Shown: one piece after another, positions 4,707-53,500 of the stretch | How the letters are laid out: the number at the start of each line of letters is the position of its first letter | How positions within the stretch are numbered: position 1 is the first letter of the stretch | Source of the DNA: Candidatus Omnitrophota bacterium | GTDB taxonomy: Bacteria > Omnitrophota > Gorgyraeia > Zapsychrales > Zapsychraceae | Reading direction: 5' to 3' | Assembly: GCA_015233405.1 (NCBI GenBank) | Contig: JADFXT010000008.1 | Coordinates: 11,250-75,249, forward strand | DNA length: 64,000 bases | The notes under the pieces: model-generated | Seen by the model: only the letters and a program-made list of their open reading frames with translations | Database searches by the model: none | What the model was told of the DNA's origin: nothing | Position numbers and translations under genes: made by a program

Positions 4707-4797
4707 GATGTCTGCCCCCTATTAGACTTCATTTACTATGTCCTATATAAAGTATAAAACATAATAATGATATATATAAGGGCAAAACGGGGGTTTC

Positions 4798-6549: not shown

Positions 6550-6611
6550 ATCTGTCGCTCCAAACACCTTTTTCCTTTTTTCCCTTTTTATTTTATGCTA
6601 TAAAGGTGCCT

Positions 6612-9233: not shown

Positions 9234-9297
9234 AAAACACAAGGAATTCTTTCTGAAATATCTTTTAATTGTTGTCCATGAATGTTTTCTTTGATTT

Positions 9298-9397
9298 TGT
9301 CATCCCCGCAATCCTTAGGCGGGGATCCAGAATTTTGAGAACATAGATTCCCGACCTGTCTGCCGACAGGCAGGCAAAAGCTTTCGGGAATGACAAC
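9298..9397. repeat. Two hairpin (REP/MITE-like) units between mutS and mutL.
   Basis: The units are tgtcatccccgcaatccttaggcggggatccag (9298-9330) and agattcccgac...tcgggaatgaca (9346-9397). They share the GTCATyCCCG...CGGGrATCCAG termini seen at 10477, 11337 and elsewhere. The first could double as the mutS terminator. Confidence 0.7.
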
Positions 9398-9459
9398 TAA
9401 AAGAAATAAAAACTGCATAAAAAAATAAGGACAAAAATTCTTTTAAAATTATAGAAATT

Positions 9460-26500: not shown

Positions 26501-29500
26501 TTGGTCCGCCACCCATTTTAAGAAATACGTCTGGCCTTCCGACGCGGCGCGTAAGATTTGAGCGCGATTTTCTTTTGTGAAATTACCAAGGTTTCGCGTA
26601 AAATATTTGCCCGGTGTGTGCGGAATCCTGACCGCTTCTTCCTGCGTATTCTGCGTGATCATCATCGCCCCGTTATTTCCCGACGGGACCGTTGCTAACA
26701 GCTCTTCAAAGATCTCCCATTTGATGTTACTGATATCATCTTTATCTTTCTTGTCATCCATGACCGGCATGCGTCCGTATTTCTTCTCGAACCGCACAGA
26801 CGCTTCTTCGGTTGTGATGTACATATCGCGAATGTCCCGTAGCGCCAGCCCGCCGTTCTGGAAGCATACCAGCTTCATATACTCGCCCGTCGGCTCTCTA
26901 AAGACATGGCCAATAATATTCTTGAATGTCGCCTTAAGGTTTTTCTGATTTAGATAAGTATATAAAGTAAAGGACGTCCCTAAGCTCATGGCGATCGCAC
27001 CCGGTTTAACGATCCCTTGGCCGGTCATACTGGCCGGATTATCTCCCGTCAAATTTACGACAACCGTTTGGTCAGAGAATCCGTATTTCTTGACCCAATA
27101 CGGCGCAATTTTACCCACAATCTCCGTCGACGGCTTAAGTCCGCTTAATTTTTTCCGCACGCCCGGGACCAATTTGTCTAATTGACGAAGCCAACGGCCC
27201 TTCTTGACATCCATTGCATTGGTTCCGGCTCCGTCGCCGAGATCCCACGGAAACCGCGCATCTGCAGTTAATAGAGATCCGTTATACGCGGCAATATTTA
27301 AGATCGTGTCCGTCTGATCATACGCTGCTTTATTTTCATGATAAAACCTCATGATCTGCGGGAAGGAGAATCGAAGCTCTCCCTTGGACCCGGTCAGCTT
27401 CATTAATTTTTTAGCCCCGCCAAAGAATTTCTCCAGTTGCTCAACTTCAGCCCCGGTCGTTTTATCCATCCAGATCGGCGCTGTTTCCCTCGAGAAGATC
27501 CCTTTAATCTGCTCCTCCAGCGGAAGGTTAGGATTCAAACTCTTAAGTCTTTGAGCAGCTTCCTTGTTGTAATAAACCGTGCCGTGCTGCTGGCCTGCTC
27601 CGGAAATTGCTTTAATATTCCCGACGCTCCATCCCTTCTTTGCAAATTCTTCCTTTAACACCTGCATATTTCTATCCAATGCCGCAGCCAACATCAAAGG
27701 CGAAGTGTGATTTAAGTTCGTATTCCCTTCCCTTAACTTCACTAAATACCCGTAGGGGGCGTTATACTTGGCATACTGCGGGTCTTCATATTTTTCCTGG
27801 TGAGACCAAACGATTTCGTTCTTATCCCCGTCGATAACGGTCATCGTCACCGACTGAGTACTCGAATTAACCCCTAAGAACCAGTTGTGGGAATTATTGA
27901 GATTAGACAATAACACGATCTCTGCATTATCCAGCTTGACATTTCTCGCATCTATTTCTCCAGCTTCATTAATTGATGTTTTATCGCCCAAAATGATGCG
28001 CATCGCGCCGATTTGCGTACCATGACTGAACATCACAACAGTTTTACCTTCATATTGGCGGTTCAACTTCATCAGTAGCTCTTTAGTCCTCAGAAGTAAA
28101 TCCAGATAGCTTTCGCCTTTTATCGGCCGCACAATGACGTCGCCCTCTTGACGATATCTGTTGACCAATGCCTGATCTTCGAGTGAAAGGTCTGATGGAA
28201 CTTTATTTTCCCAAACACCAAATGACCGTTCTTTAGCTAACGGCTCTTCGATAATATTGATCTTGATCCCGGTTTGCTCTTGGACATACTCGACAAACGC
28301 ACGGGCCGTATCCATGGCTCGGGTCAGCGGGCTTGCAATAACGACGATCTCTTCGCCGGCAAGGATCTTGGATTTTAATTGGGCGAATAATTTTTCTGCA
28401 GCTGCTTTGACTTGTTTCCGCCCATTTTCAGACAACTGATTGACCGCCTCATCCACGTCGCCCTGGAATGATCCCGGAGCCAGATTTTTTTCTGTCTCTC
28501 CGTGCCTGACCGCCCAGAATTCAAATCGAGGAGCGGCAACACTTGTATCATGATTACTAAATTTGGTTTTGTTCGTTCTTTGGTTGAGAAGGATCTTTCC
28601 GTCGAGATCTTTGATCGGCGTCCACATATTATCTAGAATTCTATCGAGCTTATCTTCTACCGCATCAATGTGTTTCTTCAATTTATTCTTTTCATATAAA
28701 TAGCTAAAATTCTCTGAATAATATCCTGCCGCGAAGAAAGCAGCCCCGGCAACAATGAGGATAAGGACAGGTAAAATCACCTGCGTCAAAATTGCACCGA
28801 TTCCCGTCGCGGCACTAGCCGTTGCGGTTAATCCGAATAAAACCAATAATCCGATTTTGGAAATACTTAAAGGTTTTCGCGCCTGGCGTGAATCCTTAAC
28901 TTGTGCAGGAAAATCAACAATCAATCTTAACTTTTGATTGGATAATTTGGCGAGCGCCTTCCAGAACAAACTCGGTTCAAATTTAATTCCGTTATCCGTC
29001 GAAGAAACTTCATAATTTCTAAACGTTGCAAGATATTTAAAGCCCGCCCCGCGAGATAATCCGAGCGCCTTCGTCAAAACAGAAGCACTGCTGTTTTCTC
29101 CGCCGGCCGCACTTAAACAGCTGTCAAAAAGACCAACGCTTCCACCGGCGAAATAATCTTTATAATCCTCAAGCGGCTTGGCCTCTTTTGAGCCCAAAGC
29201 CACCTGAGTGGCTTTGAAATTATTTTTCTCTTCCGCGGCTTTCATAATGATGTTACCGACGATCCCATGCGCCGATAAATACAAAAGATTCCATTGTTCC
29301 ACATCTGCCGGCATGGCTTTGATGGCCGCAACAAGCTCCTGGATGCTACTAATTGGAGAAGGAACAACAATCCTGTATCCGGATTCCTTGATGCGCTTGG
29401 CTTGTCTTTCAAAATAAGGTTCAAGGGAACCCGAACGGTAATCCGCGCGTAGTAGAAGCGCACTGCCCGCCGGAAATCTTTCTTTTAAAGAAAGCTTTTC

Positions 29501-32500
29501 GATAAACTGTTGTGCTTTTTGGTTCGGCAGATCTTCCAAGGCAACCTTGGCCATCATGCGCTTCGCATAAGAAGGCGATTGCCTAAATATCTGCGTCAAA
29601 ACATCAACAGCCTTGTCGTCGCCTTGATGCTTTAAATAAGCGATTTTTAATCTCGTCGGGAACGAAAAAATATTTTGTTTGGTCAAGACCGGCGCCCACT
29701 GCAGTATATTTAAGAATGATTTATTAAGTTTACAACTCGCAAGAAAAACCGCCAACATCGTAAGCATGGTAACCATATGGAAAATCGTCTTTGCCGACCA
29801 CCACGCTGCTAAAGAATAAAATACCCCGGCCAATAGCGAGAACGTTATGACACCAACGCTCATCATAACAGCAATGCTCGTCGTGATAAGGCCGGTTCTC
29901 TGAATGGAAGAAACCACCTGTTCCGGCGTCTGTTTAAAAACTTCTTTCCATCCAGCATTCTTTAAAGGTTTCGCCTCAATGTTTTCTGATGAAATTTCTG
30001 TCGGATTGATTGGCGCATAAACCACTTTTCCATCAGAATCAATACCAACAACATTTTCCGTAGCATCTTTCTTTTGAGCAAAGACCAATTGTCCCTGTTC
30101 ATCGATTCCCGCAAAATCACTCACCGGCAAGAGCTCTTCTTTCTTTTCTTGGCCAAAAATCATCTCTCCGTTATCATCAATGCCTATCAATTGTTCGACA
30201 GATTCGTTGGCGGGGGCCTCTTCCTGCTCTTGCCAATCCTCCACATTTGGCTCTTGCGTTTGCCCTAATAAACTCTCAATATCTCGACGGATTTCCTGCG
30301 CTTCTTCATCATTGGAGTCTCGATTAAGAGCTTCTTGTATATTTGCCAAAGCCTCGCCATATTCAAAAGATGATTCATAGAGTTTTGCTCGTTCCTTATA
30401 AACCTCAGCGTTTTGAGGATCAAGTCTTATCGCCTGATCAAAATCACTTAAAGCTTCCTCCTTAAACCCTAACTGGGCATTCATAATTCCTTTCATAAAA
30501 TGAATCTTGGCATTCCCAGGCTCAAGAGTTCCAGCTTGCGTAAAGGCCTCCAAAGCATCTTGATATTGCTCTAATTGCCAATAAGTAAACCCAAGCCCCG
30601 CGTACACCTTGGAATTCTTGAAACCTAAATCGATTGCTTTTTGAAAATCTGCCAAGGCCTCCTGGCTTTTGGACAATTCAAAATGAAGATAACCACGCTT
30701 ATAGTAAGCCCTGACATAATTCTCGTCGATCTCAAGGGCTTTATTGAAATTAAACAGCGCTTGGTCATAGTCGCCGGACTGAAAATCAACAAGGCCTAAA
30801 ACGTAATAATTTTCTGCGCCCTGGTCATTTACGCCACCGTTTAGAACAAGAGGTTTCCGCTGCTTCTCCGCTTCCAGCGCCCTTCGCTCATGAGTTTTCT
30901 TTAATCGTGAATGGAATTCTAAAGAAAGAACAAAAATGGCTGTACGGACCCAACGAAGAACTCTTTTCTTTAAAGGAAGATTATCGAGGAATGGCTTGCT
31001 CATCTTTTGAATGGACTGGCCAATATTGGCAAGCTGTTTATTACGCATCAACAATAGCCCATAAGCAAATCCCGTCAATAAACCGATCAAATGGCCAACC
31101 TGAGCAACCGGAGCTATGGAAGCATGGGCCAATATATATACCAAAGAAATAGAAATTAAAAACGTTCTCAAATATGGATTGGATCTCGTGGCAATAAACG
31201 CGGCGGTTAATGCGAAGTCGACAACAGAAAAGCCTAAAATGTTTTGGACAAGATATTTATGCAATAAAATCAGATAAAGCCCGCTAGAAGCCAAGATACT
31301 TAATAATGAGATTATCAGAATATTCTTAGCGCCCAATTTCTTTTCAACCATATTCCCAAAGAGCCACACCACCAACATATTGCCTGTAAAATGAATTAAA
31401 TTATTGTGTAAAAATGCATGTGTGACCAGCTGCCAGATATAACCAAAATGCCAAACAGCATAGGGATATAAGGCAAAAAGATGTTTCATCCCCGTCGGCC
31501 AGAACTGCTGGAGGACAAAGATCAAGGACATGGTAAGAATAAGGCCGGTCGTCGCAGGTCGGGAAACAAATCGACCGGACTTATGTAAAATAGCCGCTAT
31601 GAGAACCAGAGCGAACGTCACAGCCATCATCACCAGGGCGGTTTCATAATCAAGGCCAAAAAACGTAGCAACAGGTTTAACCACAATAATAGTATTCGCA
31701 TTGACCACGCCTCCTAAAGCCAAGACTCCAAGAAAAGCTTTAGTGAAGAAATTTCTTCCTCTTCGAGAAGCAACAGGTTTCTTCTCAACCTTATTGTTTA
31801 AAGGAAGGTCCTTTTTCCGGCGGATTGAAGTTTTTGATTTGTCAGGACGAATCGCTTTCATAATATTCCACGACAACATTGATTCGAGTGTCGCGATGGC
31901 ATTGAATATTGCATGAAGCGTGATGGACGCAAAGAGATTGCCCGTCGTATAATAAACATATCCAAGAGCTATCCCCATAAACCACTGGATAATATTTCCG
32001 ATTTTTCCATGGGCTGTTCTAAAAATATTCGTGCTATAAAGCAGCGCTAAGAAAACCCCTAACGAAAGCTGCAAACTGACATCGAAGCCTATTGCGGGCA
32101 AGAGTAAATGAAATGGCTGGTTAAATCCCCATGGGAGAATATGCGTAAATACTTTCACCAAAAGTCTAAAGATGCCGGCTCTAAAGAACATCTCCTCAAC
32201 AATAGGAGCAATAACTGCCACAGGCAATAAACCGAACAGGAAAGACCAATTGGATAGTTTGGGAGCGTCAGGTTTTTTATCTTTCTTTTCCTTGGCGAAA
32301 ATAAAATTCGCCATAACAACAACAAAACCAATCGCATTGATTATCCATAATTTATTTTGCCAAAAGAATTGCCAACCGGCCGTTATTCCAGCTCCAATAG
32401 AAAATTGACCATGAAACAGCATCCAGAAAAAGAGGACCACGATAATTGGCCGTGCCACAACAAACAAAATTGTAAAGATAGGATTATTATATTCTGTAAC

Positions 32501-35500
32501 AAAACCTCTTAAAAATAACGTTGTAAAACCTGCAACCGTCATTAAAAGGAAACCGATTCCAATATTAGGGACAGACAAAAGCGGCGCCACTTGAAAAGAT
32601 CCTGTCATGAGCCAATAAATTTCAACGCCGATAGCAACCAATATACCGACGGCCCATGGAGCAGGAGATTTCCTTATATTATTGAGGCCAGTCAAAACCT
32701 TCTTTACGTTCAACAAAAATTTCGAAGGTTTCCGAGACGATTTTGATTTAGAAATCACTTTAGTCTGTTGGACTTTCGGAGCTTTTATTAGCGTAAGCTC
32801 TTCAGACATGATGTTAAACTGTTGCAACTGCTTAACTTCACTTGGAAAGGATTTTAAGGTTCTCTGCTCGGCATTCTCATGCGATAAACCTTGTGATTCT
32901 TCAACAAATTCATGATAATTAATAGCTTTTAGTAAAGAGGCTGGATTTTCAACAGTTTGGAGTTTATTAAATACCTTAGACGAGAGATAAATCTTCAAGA
33001 CGCCACTTTCCTCAATAGCAAAGATAAAAATCTTTGGCATCGTCGGCGGAGCAGTAGCGGCAAACTTTGCTAAATAAAATTTCACGGGCTTAGAATATAA
33101 ATATTTGTCCGCGATTTCCTTGAATAATCGTTTTGGCGACGCCACCAAATGTTTCTTTGCCCAAACTAAATGCTCTTTAGTCAAATTTCCGAAATAACCG
33201 TTGGCCTCTTTTTTGTGTTCTTCCGTCGGTCGAGCAGAGGCTTTTTTCTTGAACACCTTAACCAACGCCAACCCCAACAATCCGCCGCCTAAATAACAAA
33301 CCGCCGCCCAAAAATTACTGATCCCCATTTGAGGAACGAACAAGGCGACATACGCGCCGAAGAATCCGACAAACGTTCCAACCAAGAAGCCAACATAAGA
33401 CCAAGCGTTACCCGGCAATCGAAAAGCAAAACCCTTCTTCGTAGAGAATTTAGTCCCTAAAAGCCACATAACGATGATGGACCACGTCGGGTTAAATAAG
33501 GACCCCACGGATATCATGGCATCAGAACCTTGCGGTTTATTTAAATTGAAATAATCGATTTCCGGCCAATATATCCAATTTAACGGAAGCCAGCGACGGA
33601 CCTTTTCTTTATTATTTTCTATCATCTCTTTTGTGGAAATCGGCTTGATCCATCCTCGGGACATAGCAAACTTTTCATAAAGTCCAAAAACAGCCATACT
33701 CCAAAGCACGCAAATGATTGTTGTTGCGGTCTGATTGACCAAGACCTTGAACAGCATTCCAAATACCGTCGGGTCTATAAATAAATATTGGTTGTAAAAG
33801 ACACGTAATCCTGAGGCAAACAAAAAGCCCATACAAAGAGGGATCACAACAACCATTTTCCAGAATTCCGCTTTCTTTTCACCCACGCTCAATTTTTGTC
33901 CTTTGATTTGATTAGAAACAAGACAAACAACTTCTCCGACGATGCTAAAGATCGCCATATTGACCCAAGAAGGAAATATCCGTAACGATCCCGGGAAAAC
34001 CAAAAGAACTGTGACTGTCATCATAGAAGTTAAAATCATCAGAAATATGTAGTTATGCTTCTTTAACCACGAAATCCATTTCTTCTCTATTTTTGGCTCT
34101 ACAACTTTTTGTGGCTTAGGACTCGACATCACAAGAGCGCTCTTTACATCGACGGGTTTATTATGAATTTTTGCATATCTCTCTTTTAAAGGTTTATATT
34201 CCAATATCGAAGCATAGACTTCACCGACGATCTTTCTGACCAAAGCAAAGCCTGCGCCAGATGGATTAACAGGCGACGGCTTCGGTAAAATATGAAGCGT
34301 CGTGTAAATCTGCTGCAATTTTTCCAAAGCAAATATCCCGCCGAATGTCAGATAAGCCCCAACACTCATCAAAATGCTGCGGAAAATATCTTTTTGGGCA
34401 GTCTTGATTGGATAATTCCGAATGATCCTCTGCGAATAATTCAGCGCTCCACCGACTAAACTAACCAGCAAAATATCCAAGGCGACATTGACCTTCCCAT
34501 TCGCTACAATAATGAAAAAGACAAGATAAGCCCCGACGCTCATGGCAATGCTGCGGACAATATCTTTCTTGGCGGTGTTCTTGGGATTATCTCGAAGAGT
34601 CTTCTGAGAATAATTCAACACAACAACGGCCAGGCCAATAAACACAGCAATATCCAAAATAATACTGAAAGCCATTCCATGGGAAACCGCACTGATAGGA
34701 TTAGAGACGAACACTTTAGTCGCTACAATAAGGATGCTTGATAAACCGCTCACCAATATGTCATTGGCTAACTGACGTCGTCTGATTGCGGAGGACTCCC
34801 ATTTTCCGGTTACCTTTTTATTGGCAAGTAGATTCACTCCAACATTATGAATAACCATCAATAATACCCAAGTCAAAGCGGCCCAGAACGAATACGAAGA
34901 AAAGCCTTTGCTGATGGCCATTCCTAAAAATGTGGCGATGGAGCCATAAATCATTTTTCTGTAAGTAACCGCACGGAATTTATTGTCACTATCCGGCCTG
35001 CCATTCTCGAAGAAAATGTCGGAGCTGGCCTTGAGCCTTGAGAGAATATTCTTACGATGATCTTTTTCCGACTTAGGACTAAACATCCCTGTCAGATAGG
35101 CAATGCTCTTTAGATTAAATAGATTTTTTGTTAATACACTAGTAACGAAGTGCGGAATGTGAAGAAAAACTTCAAGGTATTCATGGAGGCTGATGGTCTT
35201 AAGAATTTCCAGCGTCATCGGGCGAGTGCGGTCTTCGGAAACAATCTTTGTAGCAGAAGATAACACAATTGGATCACTATCAAACTTCGATTGAGAGCAA
35301 AATTCAGGCGAGAAATAAATCTTTAAGGTACCGCTTTCTTGAACAGCAAAAATAAAATCGTTGGGTAGGCTCGGCGGTGCAGTAGCGGCAAACTTCGCCA
35401 AATAAAACTTTACCGGCATACCAAATAAAGAAATTCGGATATTACCAAACAATTCCTCTGGCGATATAACCATGTTCATTTTAACCCACGCCAAAAGTGT

Positions 35501-38500
35501 CTTTGTCAAATTCCCAAAATATCCATAGCTCTCCGCCGGGTTCTTTCTCGACGAGTTATTATCCTGGATTGGCTTATTAGGATTCACGACTTTTAAGCTA
35601 TATTGTTTACCGGAATCCCCTAGATCATCCACAAAAATAGATCTTTTACCCGCCACGGCTTTCCAGAAGGCAAGCGCGTCTTTATAGATATAGGTGCTGG
35701 TGATCTTAGAAACCTTTAGAGTATTAAATGCGTATTGCTTGATCTCATTAAATAACCTGGTTCCAATTCCACGGCGTCTGTGATCCGGATTAACAGCGAG
35801 CGTCATAATAACCACATCATCAGACCTGACATTGAATTTGGTAAAACCAACAATTTTATTATTCTGGTCGACGGCAAATCTGGCATTGGCGTCAAAATAA
35901 TTTGTATACGGGAGAGAAACTCTATGAAGCACGCTTGTCTTTTGGGCCCACTTTGTTAAATTGTCCCAAGCCGCCTCAACTTCTTGTTGACTCATGATCG
36001 TATTAAGATCTTTGGGTTCCACAATCCTGACGGATGCTCCTGTTACAGATTGAATGACGATATCAGCGGATTTCGTCGAGATCTCCTCTTCTTTCTGAAC
36101 CGCATTCTTCCTTTGCTCCGTAATCTCCGTCGCCTTTTGTTTTCCTTCCCCATTAGACATTAACGAGCCCGCCAGAAAAGAAGACAACGCCAAATCAAGA
36201 TTACCCGCTAATCCAATATCGCCAGCTTGCCGTGTACCGTTCATGGAATGTCTTGCCCCACGGGCAGAATCAAGCGCACGCACTGACATACGGACGAGAT
36301 ATTTTCCTCTTGCTAAATGCGGACCGCTTAAGAAAACCCTGCCGCTGCCGGCAGAAACGCGGATTTGCTGACGACGAACAAGCTGTCCTGAAAGGTTAAA
36401 GACTTTGACATCCAGATCTGCCGGCTTCGCCAAAACGTATCTGACTTCTATCGTGCTGCCGGATAGGTCATAGCGGACAATGATATTGCTGGGAACCAGC
36501 GAAGAAGAATTATCCAAAGTCGGTGTTTTCTTCCAGGCGTTCTTAAGCGTTGTATAAACAGCTTTCTCTTGCCCGTCGATCGTAAGAAGCCCATAATATT
36601 CTTCATTGGAATAACTATCATACGGCACACCGTTGTTCGCAGCGCCGCCTGCATCCTGCTGCGACGGATTTCCGGCTTTCCACCACTCATCACGCCACTC
36701 CATGAAAGTCACGCCGATACACGTATCTTTATATTTATTGACCTCGGTCCAAATATTTTGGACCGCCTGGGCCTGTGCGGCCGCATCAGCTTTGCCGGTC
36801 TGGTTGTTATAAGAATCCGTCCCGGCCTCCGAGAAATACATGCCTACATCTTTGCCAAGCTGGGATTTTAAAGTCTGCCACTGGGTAAAAATATTGGTGC
36901 CGCCGTTACGTTCACCGGCCGGGTCATCCCATCGATACACATTGATTCCCCAAATATCCACACTCGGGCATTTTTTGACCACATCCAGCGTCGGGATCTC
37001 TCCGTGGGCCGTTGCCGTCGGATGATTTGCATCATTAGCTTTTGCATAAGCCGCAGCCGTTTCAAGCTCCGTATACCAATTATTAATGTCGTTACTAAAC
37101 CATTCCGGATGAAAATTGTATTCATTCCCGAATTCCCAGAACAGGACCGCCGGGTGGCTCTTATAATTCGTAATAAAAGTTTTATAGCCGCCGTTATAAA
37201 TGTCCGGCCCGGGAACGGTGCGGTCATCATTGTGCGGAATATTAAAAATCAAGAATATCCCGGCGGCGGCAAAAGCATCCAGAACAGTTTTATCCGTTAC
37301 AGGAAAATAAAGGCGGACCGCATTGACGCCCATATCGACCATCTTGGCGATATCCGTGGAAAGATTGGTGAAATCATAACCGTCTTTATAAGTTTTTCCT
37401 TTAGCCACCGGTGAATAAGTGACCCCGCGGATCTGGGTCACGACGCCATCAATAAGAAGTTTCCCGCCGCTTTGTTTGACGACTCGCGGACCAGCAGCAG
37501 CCAAGGTCTTTGCCGTGGCAGAAGTTTTCGTTCCAGAAAAAGTTAGAAAAGCCAGGCCGGCGCCCAACGCACTTAAGAATCCTCGACGGGAAACAGGCTT
37601 CTTGTCAGCTTTGGGGGTTTCAGAAATTGTTTTGTCAGCCAGAGTAGAAGCTATGGACTGCTCATTTTTCGCGTTTAGATCTTTTATCGCAATCGGGAAA
37701 AGAGGCGCGTTGACTAAATCAAACCGGAAGCTATCTTTCTCGCCAGCTTTCTTAAATCCAAGACCAAGCCAGAAGGAATCGTTGACGGAGTTTTTAATAT
37801 CAAAATACGAACAGCCCAGGTCTTTGGATATGGCAAGCCCCAAAAGTGCGAGCGCACCCCCCAAATGTTTCTTGCGTAGGGCTAAATCGTAAACCTCAAT
37901 GGCATTGGTTCCTTGTTCATAACCATAATTAGCGAAACCAGGATTGAAATAAAAATATCCGGCCATCTGCTTTTGATCGTTAAGATAAGCAAAAATGGCA
38001 TATGTTTGATTTTCGGGAATGCTGCTTAGCGTCTTTAATTCAAAACGGACAACTGTTCCGTCGGTCGCCTTGAGTGACAACTCGCCATTCGCCAATAGAA
38101 TTCGATCAGCGTCAATCGGAGTCATTTCTCCAATGACGACCTCTTTGTCCACCAAAGACAATAAGGTAGAAACTTGTTTCATAAATTCAGAACTGGGCGA
38201 CGATATGCCCATACTCTCTATGGAAACAACTTTGTCCGGGAAGATCTTATTTAATAACTCCTTAATCGTCCCTATGGCTCGCCGGGATTCCGGAGAATTA
38301 CGCTTTTCTTCGCTATTGGCAATCTCTAAAGCCTCAGCCAAATACGGCACCACACGAATCCATCTCTCGCTCATCTCCTCAGAGGAATAATTTTTGATTA
38401 CAGAATCCGCCTTCTTCTTAAGCGGATTAACAAATTCTATTTCCCCATCTACAACGATCGGCCAATACTGTAAAGTTTGGAAAGGAGGATTGCCTCTGGT

Positions 38501-41500: not shown

Positions 41501-44500
41501 AATCCGAACAAATCTATTAGGTGTTAAATAATGATAAACATATATTCCCGCATCATTATTTGATGGAACCTTTTCTACCTTGACATCGAGAGGCGCCGTA
41601 AAGCTCATGCCAGCTTGACAAGCCGACGTCGTCCATGAACGTTCAAGTTTCGACATCAGATCAGGATTCTTCTTCAATATACCTATGATGTTAATATTTT
41701 TGCTGCCCTTGCCCTTGACATTGAATTCCTCATGGGCGTGTCCCCATGTATTAGGAGCACTCATACATCCTTCAAAGCTCACAGCCTGTTCATGACTGAG
41801 CCCTTTAACGGTCTCTAAATATTCATGTTCGGCGATTCTTCTTTGATCTAATTCAGAATCTTTTGCATTTAAATCAGGATGGTTCTGCAGAAATTTGTCA
41901 TATTCAGAAGAGGAAAGAACAACTTTAAGAAGACTGTTACTGGACTGAAAGGCCCCAAAACAAAAATCCTGAGGAACATTGAGCGCCGGCGGAGCATTGG
42001 CCGGATAAGCCATGCGATAAAATTCAACGTTGATTTTCTCCTCGCCGAAGTTCGATGATATGGATTCAAAAACCTTGGTGAGGTCACCAGGATTAAGCTC
42101 AACTTGCTTACGTAAGAACGTTACCTGGTCTGAATTAAGATTTCCATTTAGGCCAAAACGATTAGCCGAAGGCGCCTTTCCTGATTGCTGATAAGGCAAC
42201 TCTGGCTGATCCATAACCTTATTATCTTTGGCCGCAACTTCTATTTTCTCCTCTAGAAATTCCCTTACCCGTTTAAAACGCGCTTGAATTCCTTGTTTGG
42301 GTGAGACGCTGTAAAAGATTTTTATAATCTTTTTAATTCGATTAGCATACGGCGTAAAACTTTGATCGACCCTTTGCCGGATATCCATGGCTTTCCGCAA
42401 GGTGTGGCTATAATTTTTTCCCTCTGCGCGTTCGCGCAAAGCCATATCAAAAACATGAAACTCTGGGCTCATATCCCGAGGATAACCGGTTCCCGAATAA
42501 AGGGCTTCAGCTTCTTTAAGGAATATGTCGTACATGTTAAAACGCACAGCGGTCAGGATTAACTGCATTTGGATCGCCGCCGGGAACATATCGGTTTCAT
42601 AAAGCTGAATTTTCTTAACCGACTGATATAAAGAATCAAAGGCTTTTTGCGCCAATCCGTTTAATCCGAGCGATTTCAATCGTAAGAACAATTTTCCGGA
42701 TATGACCCAGATGTTATGCAATAAATCCCGGGCGACCAAAGTGTAGTTCTCTCGGTTAATTACTCCAGCCGCTTCCTTCGCCCTAACTTCTTCCCAAAGA
42801 TTGTTTAATGTTCTTTCTTGCGCAAAAGCGTCATCAACGATTCGGCTATATTTTAAAACAAAATCCTGGCGCATTTGTTTCTGCAAGAATTCTTTCATGG
42901 CTCCAGGTTTTCCAATAATGATGTCGGAAATCGTCAGGAAGTTATTATCCAAATCCCGAATCTTACGGTCACGGACAACAATATCATTTGAATCATAAAC
43001 ATTAAACCAGCAGAACTCACTGACGTAATAAAGCAAAGCGGCCAATTCTTCTTTTCTGGCTGTCTTAAGATATTCCGCCGAGAAATAAGCGGTAAACCGG
43101 CTGCGGCCGCTATGGACCATGGAAATCAAGTTTTGAATCGGATCTGAACAAATTGGTTTAGCTTTCATATCCAACTCTACAACGGTCAAGATTCCCCGAA
43201 CCTGTTTTACAATTTCGCTAACCACCCCGACCCCGAGGCGCGGAGCGACACTTTCCAAATAATCCAACGCTTCTAAAATTTTCTGAGCGCTAGTACTCTT
43301 CGTTCTATCTTCGGGCTCCGTTTCCCCCAAAGTATGATTAAGATTTTTCATATAATAATGATCATACCCATAAACAATGCCCTTACCGTAAGCGCTGACA
43401 ATACTGTTACGGGTCTGGCGAATCTGCGGATTTGTGACAATAACTTCCTTATTCCCATAATGAGACATGTAGAGGTCATAAATATGTCCGGAATATTGAG
43501 GTATCATTCCAAGTTCGTGGAATAATAAACCATAAAAATTGAGGGAAAACGGTTTATCTCCCTTAAGGGCTTCACCTTTAAGGAAGTTCTCTTTAAAATA
43601 TGCCTCCTGATTCAAGATATCCGTAATAGCTTTTTCTGGCCCATATTTTGCAATTAGTCGACGGGAATTATAAATAAAACTATCCATGTTCGTAAAATCC
43701 CGGCTTAATCGGTCAAATAACAAATCTAAAAGATCCGTCTTACTCAAATTGCCACGGCTTAACACACCCGCCAACCCTTCCACATCGCTGATGCTTGAGA
43801 AATCCTTCTCAATTTTCTTTTCTGCCGCCGGAGATTGAACATCATCGCGCTGTTGAGGAACACCCATTTTGCGAATCTCTTCCAATTCTTTCCCAGCGGT
43901 GCTCATAGAAATAATGATGTCAAATTTTTCCCCGTTAAGGCTGCGGATTTTGTCCTCTATCAGCTGTTCGGTATTAGGCCCAAGCTTGAAACTATTGACG
44001 GGCACATTTTTACCAGTCCTCTCCTTTTGCTCAAGCAGGACTAATCGAATCGTTTCCGGCGCGGAAAGGAAGGCCTGGGCCTCTCTTAAAGTCATCTTGA
44101 CCGCTAAACCTTTCTCCGCTGTGATCGTCACGCGAGGTAATATATTTCGGTGATCTTTTAAGAACGCCGCCAATGCTTTTGTGACATATCCATAATCCGA
44201 TTCGCCGAAATAAATCAAGTTTCTAATATTGTTAAATTCCGCATTCTCCGTCAGTATTTTCAAGTGGGAATTGCCGCCGGTAGAATCCATGCCGATGACC
44301 TGCTGATACAACTTAAGAAGAATGAGCTGAAATTTGAATTCGAAAACGGAATTTGTGCTGATCGCGTCAAATTCTTTGACGACTTCCTGATCCTTATAAA
44401 AGACTTTTTCTATGAACTCCAACTGGCCTAAGTTAATCTTGGAAAGTGTGGTCCCTCGTTTAATGAGAATTTCATATAATCCGGAAACCTCTCCAGCCAT

Positions 44501-47500
44501 CCCGAGAACTTTTCCAACATTTCCGGCATCGAAAGAAACAGTCTTAGCTGCGTCTTTGATCGCATAACGCGCATACTTCCTGACCAATTCATATGACGGG
44601 CCGTCATAAGACAAAAGGGCCTTGGCCTTCTTGGATAATATTTCGAATTTAAAGTGCCGGCTGCCGGTAAACTTGCTGATGACGTTAAGGTCATAATCGA
44701 AATCGGTGTTTTCAAACATTCGACCAGCTTCGATAATAAAGCTCCTGGCCTGCGCCTTCCAGGCCGTCACCTCATTGGTCCGATCATAAGCTTTGACATG
44801 GGCTTCTTCGTGGATTCTGATTTGATTGAGATATTCTTCTGCGGCGGAATAAACTTTAAGTTTCTTTTCTTTCAATAAGGCCTCAACCGCTTCCACAAAC
44901 ATTTCTTGGGTCAAGCCGTTGGCCCATACCCAACTATCACCAGCGGAGCGGGCAATATCGAATTTGTTGATGTCCGGCGGAACCGCAACTTTATTGGATG
45001 CGACGAGCCATTGGATAATAGTGCGCAGATCGTCAGCCAATAACCCAAATTTCTCTCTGACCATATCAGAGAACCGTTTCTGTTTTGCCGCCTCATCCAT
45101 TGAATCAGGATTGATCGCCTGGAATTTGATCTGTTTAATTGTTTGAAGCTTTTCTTTAATATTTTTCAGTAATGCTTTCTCAGCTTCGGTTAAAACAGAT
45201 TCGCGCGCTTTAAATTCCACTTGCCCATATAAAAGAGTTGCCAAAGGTAGCGGCACGGCATAATCGGACGCGATTTGAGGGCTTGTTAATTCTTCCCCGC
45301 GGCCTTTTCTCTGCTCAATATCTTTTTCTATCTCAGCAATATTAAGGAAACGATCATTTTCTTCTTGGTGAGGATCAAAATCATACCGGCTGACCCCTCG
45401 TCTATTTAATCGCGGTTCTAAGTCGAGCCCAAAAAGCCGAAGTAATCGATAGGTAATGTTGACATAGACTTTTTCAATTAAATGGCTGAATTGATAAATC
45501 GTCATCGTCGGGCTGTTGAGGCTATATTTGAGGGCAAAATTAGAAACATCCAAAACTCGTCGATGATGATAATAAACTTCTTCCCTTGGAAAATTAAGCG
45601 GGTCAAACTGCCAGAGCCATCGGCTGCGGCGAAGGATCATATATTTAACCAAAGCAGGATGATTGGTCATGCGGGCATGAATGTATATGCTGCCGCGACC
45701 ATTGTTCCAGACATTTCCGCGCAAAAGATTATGCGTCGACGGAACAATCTCAATTTGCTTCAAATAAGCAAATACCGCAAGCACGTCTTTATCATTTTTG
45801 CGAACAGCCTCGTCGCGCAATTCCTTTAATAGATAATCTGCTCTTTCTTGAGGTGTCAGATTAAAATACTCAGCGCCATATTTGGTAAAAAGACTATGAG
45901 CAATTCTCGAGATATGTTCGTTGAAATTGAAAACGCCGCTGACAACCATAGACCCGCGGTGGAACACATAACGCGTCATATTTAAGAAAAACGTGCCATA
46001 AAATAATGCAGCAATAAAGAGATTGTTCATCGGTAAGAGATGGACGGCAACATAGTACGTCAGAATATACCCTAGGATTTCTCCAACAAAGTTAATGCCG
46101 CTAAACACATTGACGCTGATCTTTTTTGCGAATAATAATTTCTTTGTGATTTCGCTGAGGAAAATAATGTGCCAATCATACAATATCGGCCCGCGTAAGA
46201 CGGATAAGACAATCGCCAGACGGGTTAAAAAGGACAACCGCGGCATAGAATTACGGTGAACATTTGAGTAAAATTTAAGGGCGTTTTCCAGAGCCATGGT
46301 TAAAGGAACATCTTTGTCATTCATAGCCGCGGTTTTATCATTAACGCTCTTTTCGACGGCATTCACAAGTTCCTGGCTGGAACTCTTAGAGGTCAAGACC
46401 AATTCGTGGCTGGCATTGATGACATAATCATAAAGGCCTTGTTTGATATCAAACGACATTTTCTTAAAGAACGCGTCGGGGATCATGACGGCAGCGCGTA
46501 AACGGGCAATGAGAGTTCCCCATCCTTTTTGTTCGGTTTCCCGGGAGACATATCTGTTTTGAGCGGTTTTCCTGTCCGTAATAACACCGACTTTCCGTGT
46601 CTCAGCTAAATCCCTAAAAATATACGAAGACAGCGCGCCTTCAATGACCAGAACCATGCCTTTAGTTAAGACGGCATCCGGCCCTTCCGACAAACCGTTA
46701 TCACTCCTTCCCAAATATGAGTTCCTGAGCGCCGCAACTTTACCAATGGCTTCCTGAGGATTTTGATTAAGGGTTTTCCTGGACTTCGTCAACCAGTTCA
46801 TAAAATCGTTGATTTTCCGGCCATCGAAAATCGCAGCATAGACCAAAGCCTGGATAAAATTCAGAAGCTTGATCTGAAGCTGCTTGATCGGCGATAAAAC
46901 AAAGTATAATAAAACCAAAACAGCGGCCATCGGTGCAAACAATAGCGGAAGCTTGCGTTTTAAGAACCAGTCTGATTCCAAATGCAACGTCAGATATCCT
47001 TGCGCTTGAAGATATCGTCTGAAATTATATGATAAGCTGGACTTTCCACTTCCCGGCGTACCGTCAAAAATAAACACAGGAACATCTGGGCCTTGAGGCA
47101 GGCCTTTAAATAATTGGTCAAACACCTGCGCTTCTTGCTTCAACTGGTTCGTTTGGGCAGCCAAAGCATTTGTTTCATTGCGTTCCTTCTCGTGGATATC
47201 AATTTGACGCAAGACCCAACTGATTTCATTAGGTAACAAACTGAAAGTTTTTAAGATTGTAACCAGTTCTTTACGTTTGGCAGGGCCCCAGGTGCTGTTA
47301 TCGGCAATGGGCGTATTAAGAACAAGTTCTGTTTCACCGGCAGATAATTGAAGTCTGATTTGTTCATCCGTAAGACCAAATATCGACGGAGGAGCTTTGA
47401 TATGGCCGGATTCTATCAAATATTTGAGAGCGACCTTAAACAAGATATTTCCAAGCCTCATCAAGGAATTGTAAACATAAAATTCTGTCTTATGTTGACC

Positions 47501-50500
47501 TGCTTCGTTATAAACCGCTTTAGTTTTGATAAAATGCTCCACCGGTGAGATCAAACGATTTCCTTCAAAATTGGGCATTAATTCTGCCACTTTTTTCGGT
47601 GTTAAAATCTTCTCATGACCCAACCCCGCCGCTTTCGCCAGCTCTTTTAATCCCTCCTCTGAACCAATAAAAACAATAGAACCTAAAGGATTAGGAATAA
47701 GCGTGCGCTCGGCGTGGGTCTTGCCGCGTTCAAGGTCAATCCACGGAATATGCGCTGCCATTCCTCGCCTTAACCGGGAAACAACGTTCGCGAATTTATC
47801 CTTATTAAAATTACGGAAAATATCAATCGTTCCATCTTCTTCGATGTCTGCAATGGTCCGGTCTTTTAAGAAATTACGGCTATAGCCAACAATGTGGCCT
47901 CCCTGATTTCTTAAAGCATCCACATAAGCCTGGACCTTCGGGCTATCGAGATAATGGACTCTTTCTGTAATAGCCGGATCATAAAGGCTATCGACGGCGA
48001 TAAAAAGAATTGGCTTTATTTGGACTTTCCGGTTCTCAATTTCCTTGATCTTTGCCTTGATATCCGCTGGAAGAATGAGCTTCAGCTGAACCTTATGAAG
48101 ATATTGAAGATACTTTGCCCCTAAAGAAGCAAGATTATAATCATCACGGTCTAAAATGTTTTCTTTTAAGAACACAACAAATTCATCAATCCTTTTCGAC
48201 GCATCCCAGCCGATGTAATGGCGTGCCATGGCCCAAAGGGCATCTTCTCTCACAGAAGGATCCGGATCGGTTAAGATCGTTTTCTTGAATATGCCGACAA
48301 TCCTCCTAAAAATCTCTTCTGATTCTTGATAAGCTTCCGTCGCTGTTTTATCTTTTTCATTGTGGAAACCGCCTAATGCTAAAATGCTGGCCGTTCTGAC
48401 TTCCACGCTTTTCTGCTGAGCGTAATCTGCATTCGCCTCAAGGATGTCGAGCGTATCTTTGATTTCTTGGCGAAGCATCTGCGCGCTACGGACGATTCTA
48501 TGTTCGAAATATTCTTTTATCGATAAGGCGGCATATCTCTTCGTCCAAAACCTCTTTTGGGGATCTTTAAGAATATTCGTCAAGACAGGCAAAGACCTTA
48601 TAGATCTCAATGTTTCTCCGCCGAGCGTACGCACTCCGGCGTCTTCGACGATAGAAAGCGGGTCACGCAAACTGTCATGAAGGATCACGTCGTAAACTTC
48701 ATGACGTTCGTCCTCATGTTTGCTCAGATAATTTGCAAATTTTGCAAATGCTCCGACAGCAACCTTTCTGACCCAGGGGTCTGGATCATGCTGAGCTAAC
48801 TCAAGAAGAAGATCATAAGCCTTTAACGCTGCGTCATCTTTTAACTTATCGCTACGCATAAGCCGACCAAGGAATTTGACCGCAAGCTCTCTAGGCCCGA
48901 TATATTCAAGGCTCGACGCTGTTCTAGGATCATACGGCATAGAGGCGTCCTTCATAAAGACCTCTAAAATAGCCGGACCTTGGTTCTTGAACAAATTCAA
49001 AGAAATATCTTTTTTACCTAAGAAATTCTTTCCTTGCTGGATTTCCTCTTTGACGCGATTCACGAGAGCGGTATATTCCGAATGGTTCAATTCTTTCCTA
49101 AGTGTTTTACGCATAAACCGACGGACAATGAAATAAACAGGGATCGCAATAGGTTCCAAGTGGATAACGAATAAAATGGCAGCCAAAGTCGGGAATCCAA
49201 GGGCGGCAAGGACTAGCGGTCCTAACCAATCATCTATAGCAAAGAGAATAACGATAAAAGCAACAAATCCTAAGCCTTCTTTCATCGCCTTTTTCCATGA
49301 AGCCTTAAACGTCCTAACAGGATGGATGATGTCATCCACAGTTTCTTTTAAATATTTAAAAAAGAAATCCCAAATTTGGCCCAACACCTTTTTCGTCCAA
49401 ATGGAAAATGGCAGGCGCTCACGGTCGTTTTGATAATTTCTAAAAATACGGTCGACGCCGGCGACACCGATTTGGCGCATCACGTTGGTTTTAATAGCCT
49501 TGCCTTTCCAGTACGTGAAAAGCGTAACCCCAACAGCTGCCAAAACAATCAACGCCCATACTTCAGTGTTTAAGCCTAAAATTTTGAAACTCGAGACCGC
49601 GTTAATTGCCGCGAACTTATGAGACTCGGCGCTGGCTAAAGAAACCAATCCGCTTAATCCCAGCGCACTACCAATTAAGGCGACTTGTTTCAAATCGCTT
49701 TTCTTTGAAATAACAGCCGGGACAACAGCTTTATTATTCAACGACGGCTTGATCGATTGTAAAGCCTCGTCCGCGCTCTCGACGATATGAAGCAAATCCG
49801 CATCCTGCGGCTTGATAAGCTGAGCCGATGGGAAACTAATCATGGCTTTAACGACCGCTTCTTTGATCGGCGTCCAGAATTTGCGGCCCACTAGAATAAT
49901 CGGTCTTTTTTCCACTTTACCTGTTTGAGTGATCGCCACAAGGTCGAACAACTGGCTCATGGTCTTAGCTCTTCCGGGCAAGAAAACAAAGGCCGATGAA
50001 TTCTCAGCAAGTAAAATATGCTGATTGGAAAGGTGTGCCGTAAAAATGCTGTTTTTTGTCTGCGTTATGGAATTCAGATCACGAACAGCCACTGTCTCCT
50101 GAATCAAATCCGTTTTTTCGCCTGCGGCATTCTCTAAAATTCGTTTTAAATCTTTATTAACAGTCCCTAATCGCACCGGCACATTGTCAGATAATAACGA
50201 CGACGCTATTTGTCCGGCAATGGCTTCTTCAGATTTGTCCATTAATTCTGATTGTCCGATAAACGTAACGCTTTTTGGTAAGCGGCTTAATCGGCTCAAC
50301 ACCGAGCTAATATCATCGTTAGCTTCTTTGAGCATTTCAGACGAATCGTCAATGGTCTTATAATCAAACGGCGGCGTCTTCAAATATGCAATGGCTTCTT
50401 CTATAGAATCCGTAATGAGCGGCAAGTTCTCTATTTTGTCCATCCAGCCATATTCGCGCCAGCTCTGATAAAAGGATTCCATGATCGGCGTCCAGAAATC

Positions 50501-53500
50501 TTTGCCGAATAATACGACCGGCAATTGCCTATACCAGACTTCGAACAATTCATCCAAGGTGCCGAATCCGCCGGGGAAAACCACGATGCCGCGGCAATTG
50601 TTATAAAGCCCCATTTTTCTGGTCACAAAGTGCTCGAAACGATAAACATCCTCTACGTATTCAGAGGTCTTTTGTTCAAACGGAAGTTGGATCCTAATCC
50701 CTTGTGTTTGATTTACAACGTTTTTCGCTTGACCGGCCGTTGCCCTGGCTTCGATATATCCTTCCAAAGGCGCTTCCATCATCGACGGGCCAGCCCCTGT
50801 CCGAATTTTTAAGCCGGCGTTGTAAATCGCCTTGCCGAGTTCCCGGGCTTTGTCAAAAACAGGACTCGTCGACGGGATTCTCGCGCTTCCAAAAATCGCC
50901 ACGGCCTTCGGCCAAAGTAAGTGAATTTGCCGGACAAGTTTTCGCTCTTCTTGAAATTCTTTAATTAACTTGCTCGTTCGAACATCGACGGGGAAAGGCT
51001 CTTTCTTATTTTTCTTCAACCGCAACCCTGCGCTCAAAAATACCATCACACCCAAAACCTTCAGCATCGGGATAACAGCCGCAGCCAAAAAGTATTGCCA
51101 AGCTCCGCTAAGAATAAAGACCACCATCGCCGCCATACCTATCCACTGCCATCGCCCAGAAACATCTAACATCTTTTCTTCATTTTTAGTTATTCTCGAA
51201 AGAAGCACATTAAAACCATCCAGCGGAGGAACCGGCAAAAGGTTGAGGGTCATTAAAATCAAATTAATAAAAACGACTTGCGATAAGAAGACCTCAAAGC
51301 CCAAATGCCAAGCTCCGGATAAATGAACTAATCCTGTGAAGACAACAGCGAGAATCAAGTTAGCGGCAGGACCGGCAAGAGCGACCCAGAACATCCCTTT
51401 ACGGCCGACTTTAAAAATGTCGACTGGGACCGGCTTTGCCCAACCAAAACTAATTAATAACGGAAGAATGATCGTTCCGAAAAGATCGATATGCGCCAGA
51501 GGATTGAGTGTCAACCGTCCTGCTTTCTTTGCGGTGTCATCCCCAAAACGATAAGCAACATACCCGTGAGCGAATTCATGGAAACTCAAACTGATTAAAA
51601 CAACAGAGATCATCAGAATTCTTTGTAATAAATGCGGTCCAATCAAGGCCATCCCCGTAAAACCAAAGAACATCCAATTTTTAAATGAAGGCTTCTTGAT
51701 CCGCTCAATGACTTTCGAGAGGAATTTATTCGACGATAAAGTCGAATTTATTTTCCCAATAATCTTTTCTCTGTTGTTATAAGCACCCTTAAAACTCGAA
51801 AGCGCTTTTTCGACGGATAAAAATAAAACCTTGCCACCATTTTGTGCTAACTTGGCCAAGGAAATTCCAAGCTCTCGGCTTAATATCGATACAGCGAATG
51901 ACAATATTATGATGCCGACAATTAAAACAGCAATGATTGCCCCGGCAGGAGAAAAAGCTTGAGTAGAACTTGAAATTGCGGCGGTATCGACAACAGCTTG
52001 AGCTGCCCCCAGCGATGATAACCCGCCAGCCGCAGCACCAGCTCCTCCCACAGCCGCCTGAATATGCCCTATCGATAACAAGACCGTGGCCATCAATCCA
52101 CCGACAATGTTACGCTTCATATGGCTTGCTGGTTTTTCTACCCTCGGTGTATCTAAGCAAACTATTTGGCTCTGCGTTGTTTTTTCCGGTGTGGGTTTTT
52201 TAATCTCTTTGTTCAATGACTTAATCACCATCGGCAGAAGTCTTTGAGCTGAGGCATTTTCAAAAGGCTTCTCGGAAAGAATCTTCAATGTCAAAACTTT
52301 CGATTCATTCCTAGAGGAGATAATCTGCATCGCAAAAGTGCTCAAGTCGACATAATGAAGGGTTGCAATAGCTTCCTGATTTTTAGAAATAAGCGCCAGC
52401 GATATTAAAGTATTAATGCTGCGTTCGTCTCCCTTTTCTGCCCCTAATTTAAGCTTCCAAAGTATGCCCGCGGCTTCTTGGGCATACTTATCAGACCCTT
52501 TGGGCAATTCTAGTTGCGCCGTCGTATCCTGTTTGCTAAGAGAAGTGTCGCTGATGGCCGAGGCCGCACGCATTTCAGAAGAAAATAATAAAACCAAAGA
52601 AGCAGCCATTATCGAGGAGAGGAAAAATCTGCGCCCAAATAGAGATTTGCGCTTAAGCGATGTTTCCGGTTTATTAGGCGTATTATCCGCAGGCTTAACA
52701 GCAAAAGCTGGCATCTTTGCAGAGTCAGAAACTTTTACCTCAGGCAGACCAAGTTTAATAAGCGCGCTATAAATCTCAGCATTCTCAATTGAAATCAATC
52801 CATTGGCTTTTACATCTTCAAGAGCTCTGGCGCATTCCAACCATTCCCGCTCATTAATAAGCCCTGTCAAAGCAGTATCGATGTATTTCTCTATATCCTG
52901 GACAGGAAGACATTTCATTTTATTAACATCAATGCTGGCGCCTACAAGCTCTACCCACCAACCATTTTTCTTCATGCCATCTAGAACAATTCTGGCTCGA
53001 CCGGCCATCTGATCCTTGTCGACGTTAAAAATGTCGCATTTCTGTATAACATCCAAACAACCAAGCCAATCATTTCTCTTTGTTAAATTCTCAAAACTGG
53101 TTTCCGCATAGGCAGAAACATTCTTAATAAATCCTTTTTCAAAGCCTTTTAACGCGATGTTCAAATATCCGAAATAATATTTCTGCTTTAAAAGGACGTT
53201 TAAATACGTCATTACGCTGGATTTTGTGTTAATAATATTTTTGTCAATTGCAGTCATAACGACATTGGCGTATTCCCAGAGCATGTTATTATCTTCGAGG
53301 ACAGTAAGATGAGTCTTAATGTCATCTTCCGTCGTCAAGATCCCAGCCGCTATACCTTCCTGGACTTTTTGTGAATATCTCGATATCCAGCCACTTTGCT
53401 CTATACTCTTTAAAGATTGAGCAAATCGTTCCTGGCTATTGTTGAGCGTAAAACCATTTCGAGCAGCTTTGATGACAACATCGGAAAGCTCAGTATAAAA

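Follow-up and report, generated by a model that had tools for sequence, protein, structure and literature searches.

Three intramembrane protease modules within one giant open reading frame of Omnitrophota: captured enzymes or a self-cutting chain?

Can a bacterial protein of at least 17,475 residues be cut into working parts by proteases that it carries itself? The question is raised by a giant open reading frame (ORF) on the minus strand of a 64,000-nucleotide stretch of DNA from a Candidatus Omnitrophota bacterium (assembly GCA_015233405.1, contig JADFXT010000008.1, positions 11,250 to 75,249), which we call the window. A first-pass annotation had placed three families of intramembrane protease and a caspase-like module in this one frame, and had proposed that the chain is inserted into the membrane and then cuts itself. 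Giant ORFs are common in Omnitrophota (PMC10066038), and both the existence of such genes and the idea that their products are cleaved are already published; whether the product is a single megadalton chain or a set of cut pieces is a question raised in both papers describing these giants (West-Roberts et al. 2023, bioRxiv 10.1101/2023.11.21.568195; Nielsen & Lui 2026, bioRxiv 10.64898/2026.06.07.730766). The present ORF could serve as a compact test case, with three intact proteases whose catalytic residues can be named, defined transmembrane (TM) hairpins and assayable enzymes. Our analysis finds the three proteases where they had been seen, does not support the caspase-like module, and leads us to favour, tentatively, a membrane-tethered chain whose proteases would be housekeeping modules acquired by capture.

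Three intramembrane proteases in one reading frame

The giant ORF occupies window positions 11573..64000. Its stop codon lies at 11573-11575 and the frame is open up to base 64000, leaving at least 17,475 codons plus the stop visible. The longest called ORF (11573..63766, 17,397 aa) is continued stop-free in the same frame from 63766 to 64000, and the whole stretch holds no in-frame stop, against 949 and 1,386 in the other two minus-strand frames. Because the frame is still open at the window edge, the N-terminus lies outside the window; residues are counted here from that edge, residue i being window positions 64000-3i+1 to 64000-3(i-1). The visible ORF is the C-terminal part of a giant gene product, of about 2 MDa. 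The features that bear directly on the question are as follows.

51026-51652, minus strand, residues 4117-4325: M50/site-2-protease module (Peptidase_M50 Pfam match, alignments)
31856-32683, minus strand, residues 10440-10715: CPBP/Rce1-like glutamic intramembrane protease module (Pfam, alignment A2)
31031-31555, minus strand, residues 10816-10990: rhomboid serine protease core (Pfam, GlpG alignment, alignment A4)
28967-29473, minus strand, residues 11510-11678: segment previously called clan CD/CHAT-like; unannotated, soluble, between two TM hairpins
29732-29875, minus strand, residues 11376-11423: TM hairpin with a 10-aa loop
28724-28855, minus strand, residues 11716-11759: TM hairpin with a 6-aa loop and five Lys or Arg (K/R) in the upstream flank

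All three protease families score above their Pfam cut-offs, at the places where the first-pass annotation had put them, and the motifs that it had read by eye are present in each. Peptidase_M50 (PF02163) matches residues 4131-4290 with 42.3 bits against a cut-off of 27.2 (E = 7e-11). Its HEFAH (51566-51580) and NLLPVPPLDG (Asp at 51218-51220) align to HExxH and D148 of the M. jannaschii site-2 protease (S2P; 3b4r). In an alignment with homologues (A1), HExxH and NxxPxxPLDG are invariant, all 62 invariant columns are kept in the module, and the module spans stand-alone proteins of ~203 aa end to end at 41-44% identity (up to 49% for other stand-alone proteins of this size), with a Met two residues ahead of the position aligned to the homologues' start Met. 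The 120 best relatives from a search of 5.8 billion proteins are all stand-alone proteins of the type 'site-2 protease family / Zn-dependent protease', 169-420 aa and mostly about 203 aa long, at 39-57% identity (best E 3e-46).

The CPBP module is matched by the Rce1-like/CPBP family (PF02517) over residues 10585-10702 with 39.6 bits (cut-off 22.4). Its EExxxR, FxxxH and HxxxN motifs read EEMFFR (32180-32197), FRTAH (32009-32023) and HAIFN (31901-31915), and the E, E, R, F, H, H and N of these motifs are invariant in alignment A2, which has nine members including the module and eight relatives. No solved structure was matched by the sequence of this module.

The rhomboid core (PF01694, residues 10855-10986, 64.7 bits against a cut-off of 22.6) could be aligned to E. 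coli GlpG. Ser10925 in 'LGFSVV' (31226-31228) and His10970 in 'GHLIGLLTG' (31091-31093), the pair already noted, correspond to S201 and H254, while the HxxxN element, HFTGN at 31379-31393, corresponds to H150 and N154. A nearby 'ASSG' was considered as the site of the catalytic Ser and rejected, since the GlpG alignment places this residue in 'LGFSVV' instead. Compared with typical rhomboids the module has GFSV instead of GxSG, and WQ instead of the WR motif of loop L1, the Arg being replaced; the position of GlpG Tyr205 is a Phe. The WR motif is structural, not catalytic. In alignment A4, which adds seven stand-alone relatives, all 12 invariant columns are present in the module, and the rhomboid relatives are all stand-alone proteins of 80-660 aa.

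As judged from these alignments, the three modules are catalytically intact intramembrane proteases, with every catalytic residue kept. All three stay below the NCBIfam equivalog cut-offs, which makes them members of their families at family level only. Since M50 and rhomboid have ordinary stand-alone genes as their closest relatives throughout, both modules look like captured cargo, as the other enzymes of the chain do. They resemble stand-alone M50B proteases, GlpG-type rhomboids and CPBP/Abi proteases in being full-length modules with all family-defining catalytic residues; unlike these, they are internal segments of a chain of at least 17,475 aa. The nearest precedent for the release of TM-anchored domains is provided by dedicated sorting proteases of the rhomboid or CPBP family (rhombosortase with GlyGly-CTERM, MrtJ with JDVT-CTERM, the CAAX-type enzyme with PEP-CTERM), which remove TM anchors from their cognate proteins. 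By comparison, scores in the giant ORF are sub-threshold (rhombosortase 32.5 bits, cut-off 84; MrtJ 21.8 bits, cut-off 75), and no C-terminal sorting signal for sorting-type proteases was identified in it.

The caspase-like module did not withstand the same scrutiny. The segment in which a His-Gly...Asp-Cys pattern had been read as clan CD sits in an unannotated soluble stretch, about 290 aa long, that separates two TM hairpins. It has no Pfam match even at E<=10, no NCBIfam or PDB match and no homologue among the 5.8 billion proteins, and its AlphaFold single-sequence model, with a predicted local distance difference test score (pLDDT) of 39, is too poor for a caspase-type fold to be judged from it. 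The pattern itself occurs at chance level: given 10 HG and 78 Cys in the whole ORF, about 1.8 HG...C pairs at a spacing of 30-70 aa are expected, and one was observed.

Enzyme modules along the chain

At least 22 distinct Pfam families are found along the giant ORF and together they cover about 26% of the chain. The other modules are listed here; support is from Pfam unless stated.

residues 19-387, minus strand: PPDK_N and PEP-utilizers mobile domain
residues 1967-2246, minus strand: PEP-utilizers_C
residues 2520-2663, minus strand: cytidine/dCMP deaminase
53978-55210, minus strand, residues 2931-3341: LOG (Lysine_decarbox) double module, copy A (Pfam and self-comparison)
49727-50968, minus strand, residues 4345-4758: LOG double module, copy B, directly after M50 (Pfam and self-comparison)
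after Peptidase_M50, minus strand: HEAT
residues 7818-8018, minus strand: Dus
38132-38974, minus strand, residues 8343-8623 (Pfam 8351-8541): PRK/uridine-kinase, copy 1
residues 9363-9446, minus strand: GNAT
30191-30829, minus strand, residues 11058-11270: TPR repeats (TPR_1, TPR_2, TPR_11, others), directly after the rhomboid core
residues 11829-12028, minus strand: His_Phos_1
residues 12110-12553, minus strand: FGGY
24359-25780, minus strand: MDH (Ldh_1_N and Ldh_1_C, residues 12741-13056) with the adjoining sugar transferase
residues 13077-13214, minus strand: Bac_transf, PglC-type sugar transferase, immediately after MDH, with one N-terminal hydrophobic helix
residues 13774-13966, minus strand: Ribul_P_3_epim
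residues 14415-14629, minus strand: A_deaminase
19061-19906, minus strand, residues 14699-14980 (Pfam 14707-14897): PRK/uridine-kinase, copy 2
residues 16244-16528, minus strand: Radical_SAM with SPASM
about 41783-42151, 35252-35548 and 32924-33223, minus strand: three copies of a ~100-aa repeated module (self-comparison)

The cytosolic-type enzymes on which the self-cutting proposal had drawn are partly as described: MDH and the FGGY kinase are there, and the supposed CoaE-like module is a kinase of the PRK/uridine-kinase type.

The M50 module, matched end to end by stand-alone proteins, and the MDH module, whose N-terminus is the family-typical MKVTVTGAAGQIG, make the modules look like complete captured genes. 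On this view the giant ORF was assembled by taking in whole genes, each in frame and elsewhere found alone, and grew further as parts of it were duplicated. Duplication has left several traces. The four LOG/Lysine_decarbox stretches (at about residues 2960-3340 and 4366-4758) belong to two double copies, A and B, whose two LOG domains are 56% and 44% identical. An operon-capture origin of the M50-LOG adjacency was considered and rejected: stand-alone M50 genes have unrelated neighbours. The two PRK copies, 19 kilobases (kb) apart, share 89% amino acid and 90% DNA identity. Their differences are mainly synonymous (synonymous divergence, dS, 0.31-0.42; non-synonymous divergence, dN, about 0.06), and a dN/dS of 0.13-0.19 between copies this similar indicates that the frame is translated and constrained in both. 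On these estimates the duplication is fairly recent and both copies are under purifying selection. The ~100-aa module has no Pfam match and is found at residues 7283-7406, 9484-9583 and 10259-10359 (30-50% identity); two of its three copies lie on either side of the large unassigned TM cluster that precedes CPBP.

At the upstream end of the visible chain, the PEP-synthase/PPDK-type domains (window 57263-63943, minus strand; residues 19-2246) are split, with about 1,580 unannotated residues between the halves.

Membrane topology

The proposal of self-cutting had rested in part on the premise that an intact chain, with cytosolic-type enzymes alternating with TM helices, makes little topological sense. 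This premise fails. Two hydropathy scales give about 48-62 TM candidates in the giant ORF, taken here as about 50 segments, and these are clustered. Ten clear hairpins have loops of 5-21 aa; the density of Lys plus Arg is 0.065 in these loops and 0.20 in the 15-residue outer flanks, against 0.129 overall, and such K/R-poor loops with K/R-rich flanks are the positive-inside signature of hairpins with both ends in the cytoplasm (N-in/C-in). Where TM counts between modules are clear they are even: two from LOG to the next module, four from LOG copy B to HEAT, two from Dus to PRK, and two plus two both from TPR to His_Phos and from PRK to radical SAM. The segments that come after the M50 core and after the rhomboid core are K/R-rich, which fits a cytoplasmic C-terminal end for each. 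Radical SAM enzymes, kinases and dehydrogenases require cytoplasmic cofactors, and the N-terminal helix of PglC-type (monotopic phosphoglycosyl transferase) enzymes is re-entrant. With N-in/C-in hairpins, even counts and a re-entrant transferase helix, the cytosolic-type enzymes can all be cytoplasmic in an uncut chain.

The distribution of TM segments also limits what intramembrane cutting could achieve. Multi-enzyme blocks of 1,300-3,400 aa are free of them (residues 1-3376, 11760-13081, 13729-15490 and 15680-17131); the second of these holds His_Phos, FGGY and MDH, and the third an epimerase, a deaminase and a kinase. Intramembrane proteases could not separate the enzymes within such blocks. 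Relaxed Pfam scans found no membrane family in the unassigned TM clusters, which leaves the three different proteases as the only recognisable polytopic modules.

About 325 residues short of the C-terminus there is a single strong TM segment (window 12551-12607, minus strand; residues 17132-17150) with no second helix to pair with. The tail beyond residue 17150 may be the sole visible part of the chain on the outer face of the membrane.

Relatives of the CPBP module in other long proteins

Unlike the M50 and rhomboid modules, the CPBP module belongs to a subfamily with members in at least five further long multi-enzyme proteins: five of the nine nearest among the matches listed are 1,215-4,960 aa long. 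Two of the long relatives are named Omnitrophota by their source, and among the modules of the group are GNAT, sigma-70, His_Phos, QRPTase, NUDIX and NAPRTase. When the CPBP plus rhomboid region was compared exhaustively by HMMER with 1.84 billion representatives, there was no match below 1e-30 and none covering both modules, and hence no orthologue is available. In metagenomes, a pattern from a further CPBP alignment (A3) gave 444 matches, none of them confirmed by tblastn.

A pentapeptide, RSE[VL]R, lies between the modules of two of these relatives. In P0036 (Omnitrophota MBP9865254.1) it occurs six times, at residues 219, 552, 895, 1388, 1626 and 2681, and each of the four Pfam modules falls in its own interval between copies. 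In P0150 (L083, 456-4103) there are six copies and one RAELR; these copies use different synonymous codons, so the motif is conserved as a peptide and not as a DNA repeat. RSE[VL]R is thus a candidate junction or cleavage signal in CPBP-bearing long proteins. It is absent from the giant ORF in the window, where no short motif is significantly recurrent at module junctions, and we found no paper on it in the literature. The recurrence of the CPBP subfamily and the RSE[VL]R motif point to places where processing signals might lie.

A tethered multi-enzyme chain and its rivals

The reading that we favour, tentatively and with a rough probability of 0.45, is that of a multi-enzyme chain, tethered to the membrane and facing the cytoplasm, whose proteases were captured as housekeeping modules. 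TM hairpins with short loops and both ends cytoplasmic would fasten the chain to the inner membrane, the ATP-, NAD- and S-adenosylmethionine-dependent modules would all hang on the cytoplasmic face, and the protein would work either uncut or as large blocks of several enzymes. The three protease modules would do the jobs of their stand-alone relatives, namely regulated intramembrane proteolysis, clearance of TM remnants and peptide trimming; they might also act on the giant's own hairpins, with no obligatory maturation machinery of the viral style. What the sequence shows is the ORF with its modules and their catalytic residues, purifying selection on the two PRK paralogues, the pattern of hairpins and the Omnitrophota context; the topology of the chain, its functional form and the substrates of its proteases are what we infer here.

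Several observations weigh against this reading. The topology comes from hydropathy scales and the positive-inside rule and not from a trained predictor, and TM counts are uncertain in the clusters at residues 3792-4040, 5684-6006, 9699-10250 and 13455-13588. The polytopic modules that can be recognised are, without exception, intramembrane proteases, of three different families; this looks non-random and suggests a function bound up with the TM-rich chain itself. The CPBP relatives in long multi-enzyme proteins, with their invariant catalytic residues, suggest a class-specific job such as processing, and the conservation of RSE[VL]R in two of them may reflect site-specific processing in the class. 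Finally, MDH, LOG and uridine kinase normally have to form oligomers, which fusion into one chain would impede.

The best-placed alternative, which we consider doubtful, is the one originally proposed: that after co-translational insertion one or more of the embedded rhomboid, M50 and CPBP modules cleave the chain within its TM hairpins or beside them, releasing roughly 10-15 blocks, many of them still multi-enzyme. In its favour are the intact catalytic residues of all three modules and the fact that every recognisable polytopic module is a protease. The hairpin loops are short, and S2P-type enzymes accept short ectodomains. The recurrence of the CPBP subfamily in long multi-enzyme proteins points the same way, and cleavage of Omnitrophota giants, through C39/S8 domains, has been proposed before (West-Roberts et al. 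2023). Against it, the topological argument on which it was built does not hold, nothing supports the clan CD module, many neighbouring enzymes are not separated by any TM segment, no cleavage motif recurs, and the M50 and rhomboid modules are generic captured genes without relatives inside giants. Nor are polyproteins needed for gene co-expression; to our knowledge bacteria have no need of single-ORF expression for that purpose. A more specific form of the idea, in which the chain is a cellular polyprotein whose own intramembrane proteases cut its TM hairpins and release multi-enzyme blocks, with CPBP as the prime candidate and the rhomboid and M50 modules as a site-1/site-2 pair, we regard as unlikely. 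If true, no earlier case of a bacterial polyprotein maturing through intramembrane proteolysis would precede it, and it would explain the use of ORFs of 10,000 to 150,000 codons by Omnitrophota.

It is distinctly unlikely, in our judgement, that the cutting is done by other proteases, either an N-terminal C39/S8-type domain out of view or separate cytosolic enzymes, with the intramembrane proteases clearing TM stubs only. Clearing TM remnants is indeed what RseP- and GlpG-type enzymes do. The RSE[VL]R copies of the relatives sit in soluble linkers rather than in TM segments, and in full-length giants C39 and S8 domains lie near the N-terminus (West-Roberts et al. 2023), a part of the present chain that falls outside the window. 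Set against this, the 17,475 residues seen contain no C39, S8 or other soluble protease domain, and the giant ORF is without a junction motif.

A 'stop-less operon', whose modules are made separately from internal translation starts or internal transcripts with no need of proteolysis, seems to us very improbable. The aligned starts of the MDH and M50 modules do each have a Met in place or no more than two residues away, and between 31 and 51 kb promoter-like matches (56 against 37.5±6.2 in shuffled sequence) and terminator-like matches (41 against 21.4±4.8) are slightly in excess. Most of the promoter matches are antisense, however, and consensus scans of this kind are weak evidence, which we judge uninformative. 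In-frame ATGs are preceded by Shine-Dalgarno-like sequences no more often than background (9.8% as compared with 12.9%), a weak test given that mutL itself, a neighbouring gene in the window, lacks an obvious one. Without stops every upstream ribosome would still read through, and 17,475 stop-free codons imply selection for read-through. That the giant ORF is an assembly artefact or a decaying pseudogene, for which the absence of an orthologue is the sole argument, is effectively refuted by a run of 17,475 codons with no stop, where each of the other frames has about 1,000, and by the dN/dS of the PRK modules, which are under purifying selection, and is further opposed by the even GC content (0.40-0.48), the intact catalytic motifs of the proteases and the fact that sequencing errors break ORFs rather than create them.

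Comparison with known giant proteins

The giant ORF is a sequence-unique addition to the multi-enzyme giant proteins already described from Omnitrophota. Nielsen & Lui (2026) catalogued 916 Omnitrophota proteins of at least 10,000 aa, of which nearly half were read as anchored in the inner membrane with cytoplasmic domains and in which 80% of sequence clusters are singletons. Their class of 'multi-enzyme metabolic clusters' (class 1) has many distinct Pfam families and about 2% TM residues. The present chain is at least 10,000 aa long, comes from Omnitrophota and has TM helices and many Pfam families, none of them dominating; further likenesses are about one TM helix per 350 aa, HEAT/TPR scaffolding, the combination of GNAT with radical SAM, and a unique sequence. 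It differs in that 'peptidase/protease' is listed only generically for the class, and in that its enzymes lean to nucleotide/nucleoside salvage.

West-Roberts et al. (2023) described TM-rich giants and suggested that C39/S8 peptidases within these proteins might divide them into several products. These 'archaeovorin' giants, from Velamenicoccus archaeovorus and relatives, are likewise giant TM-rich Omnitrophota ORFs for which cleavage by an embedded peptidase is hypothesised. Their cutters are soluble C39 and S8 domains near the N-terminus, as against the intramembrane types of the present ORF, and their domains (glycosyl hydrolases/transferases, SecA-DEAD, NUDIX), read as extracellular and prey-directed, are not seen in the visible 17,475 aa, a part that excludes the N-terminal region. 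Neither paper (10.1101/2023.11.21.568195 and 10.64898/2026.06.07.730766) mentions M50, rhomboid, CPBP or intramembrane processing, and our literature search found no paper on intramembrane proteases in bacterial giant proteins. Viral polyproteins, such as those of flaviviruses and picornaviruses, share with the giant ORF the single long frame with several enzymes, proteases and TM segments, but use soluble proteases and recurring cleavage motifs, in place of which the giant ORF has intramembrane types and no recurring motif.

The lean toward nucleotide and cofactor salvage is seen in the cytidine and adenosine deaminases, the two uridine-kinase-type modules, the four LOG domains and the histidine phosphatase. 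CPBP-bearing relatives (e.g. P0074, L082, 4,960 aa) carry NUDIX, nicotinamidase-like, NAPRTase and QRPTase modules. Such enzyme content fits a host-dependent lifestyle.

Genomic neighbourhood

The giant ORF ends convergently with a mismatch-repair gene pair.

6354-11280, plus strand: mutS (6354-9233) and mutL (9460-11280), by Pfam, convergent with the end of the giant ORF

Among 185,579 GTDB species genomes, the best match to the MutS of the window is that of a Candidatus Omnitrophota metagenome-assembled genome (63% identity), the next best reaching 45%. In this closest GTDB relative (L001) the genes beyond mutL are of ordinary size and show no similarity to the giant ORF. A second genome (GCA_964374105.1, contig CAYJXI010000001.1; L081, 1-21239) has an 81,822-aa gene, the CPBP relative P0013 (2,189 aa), convergent mutL and mutS, and a TPR protein. 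Its MutS and MutL are 64% and 50% identical to those of the window, and the presence of a giant there indicates that a giant's position beside mutL-mutS is conserved. Sequence and architecture otherwise are not: of the genes on this contig, the CPBP module alone is recognisably similar to the giant ORF (30%). The final 3,165 aa of the 81,822-aa giant neither match any Pfam family nor resemble the present ORF. Judged by MutS identity and mutL-mutS synteny, the locus belongs to Omnitrophota. Given the size of the giant at the syntenic position, the present ORF may be far longer than its visible part.

A second large ORF (window 3-4718, minus strand) is at least 1,572 aa long, continues beyond the left edge of the window and has no Pfam match. 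Its N-terminus is signal-peptide-like, MILGREKSYKSKTYKLINILILLSFILNSVLPAQLSFAQT, and its product is probably secreted. Between this ORF and mutL, the called mutS start (6354-6700 region, plus strand) is a GTG that overlaps a TPR ORF (5102-6508, minus strand). MutS homologues align only from residue ~107-113, and the true start probably lies downstream, e.g. at the Met at about residue 87.

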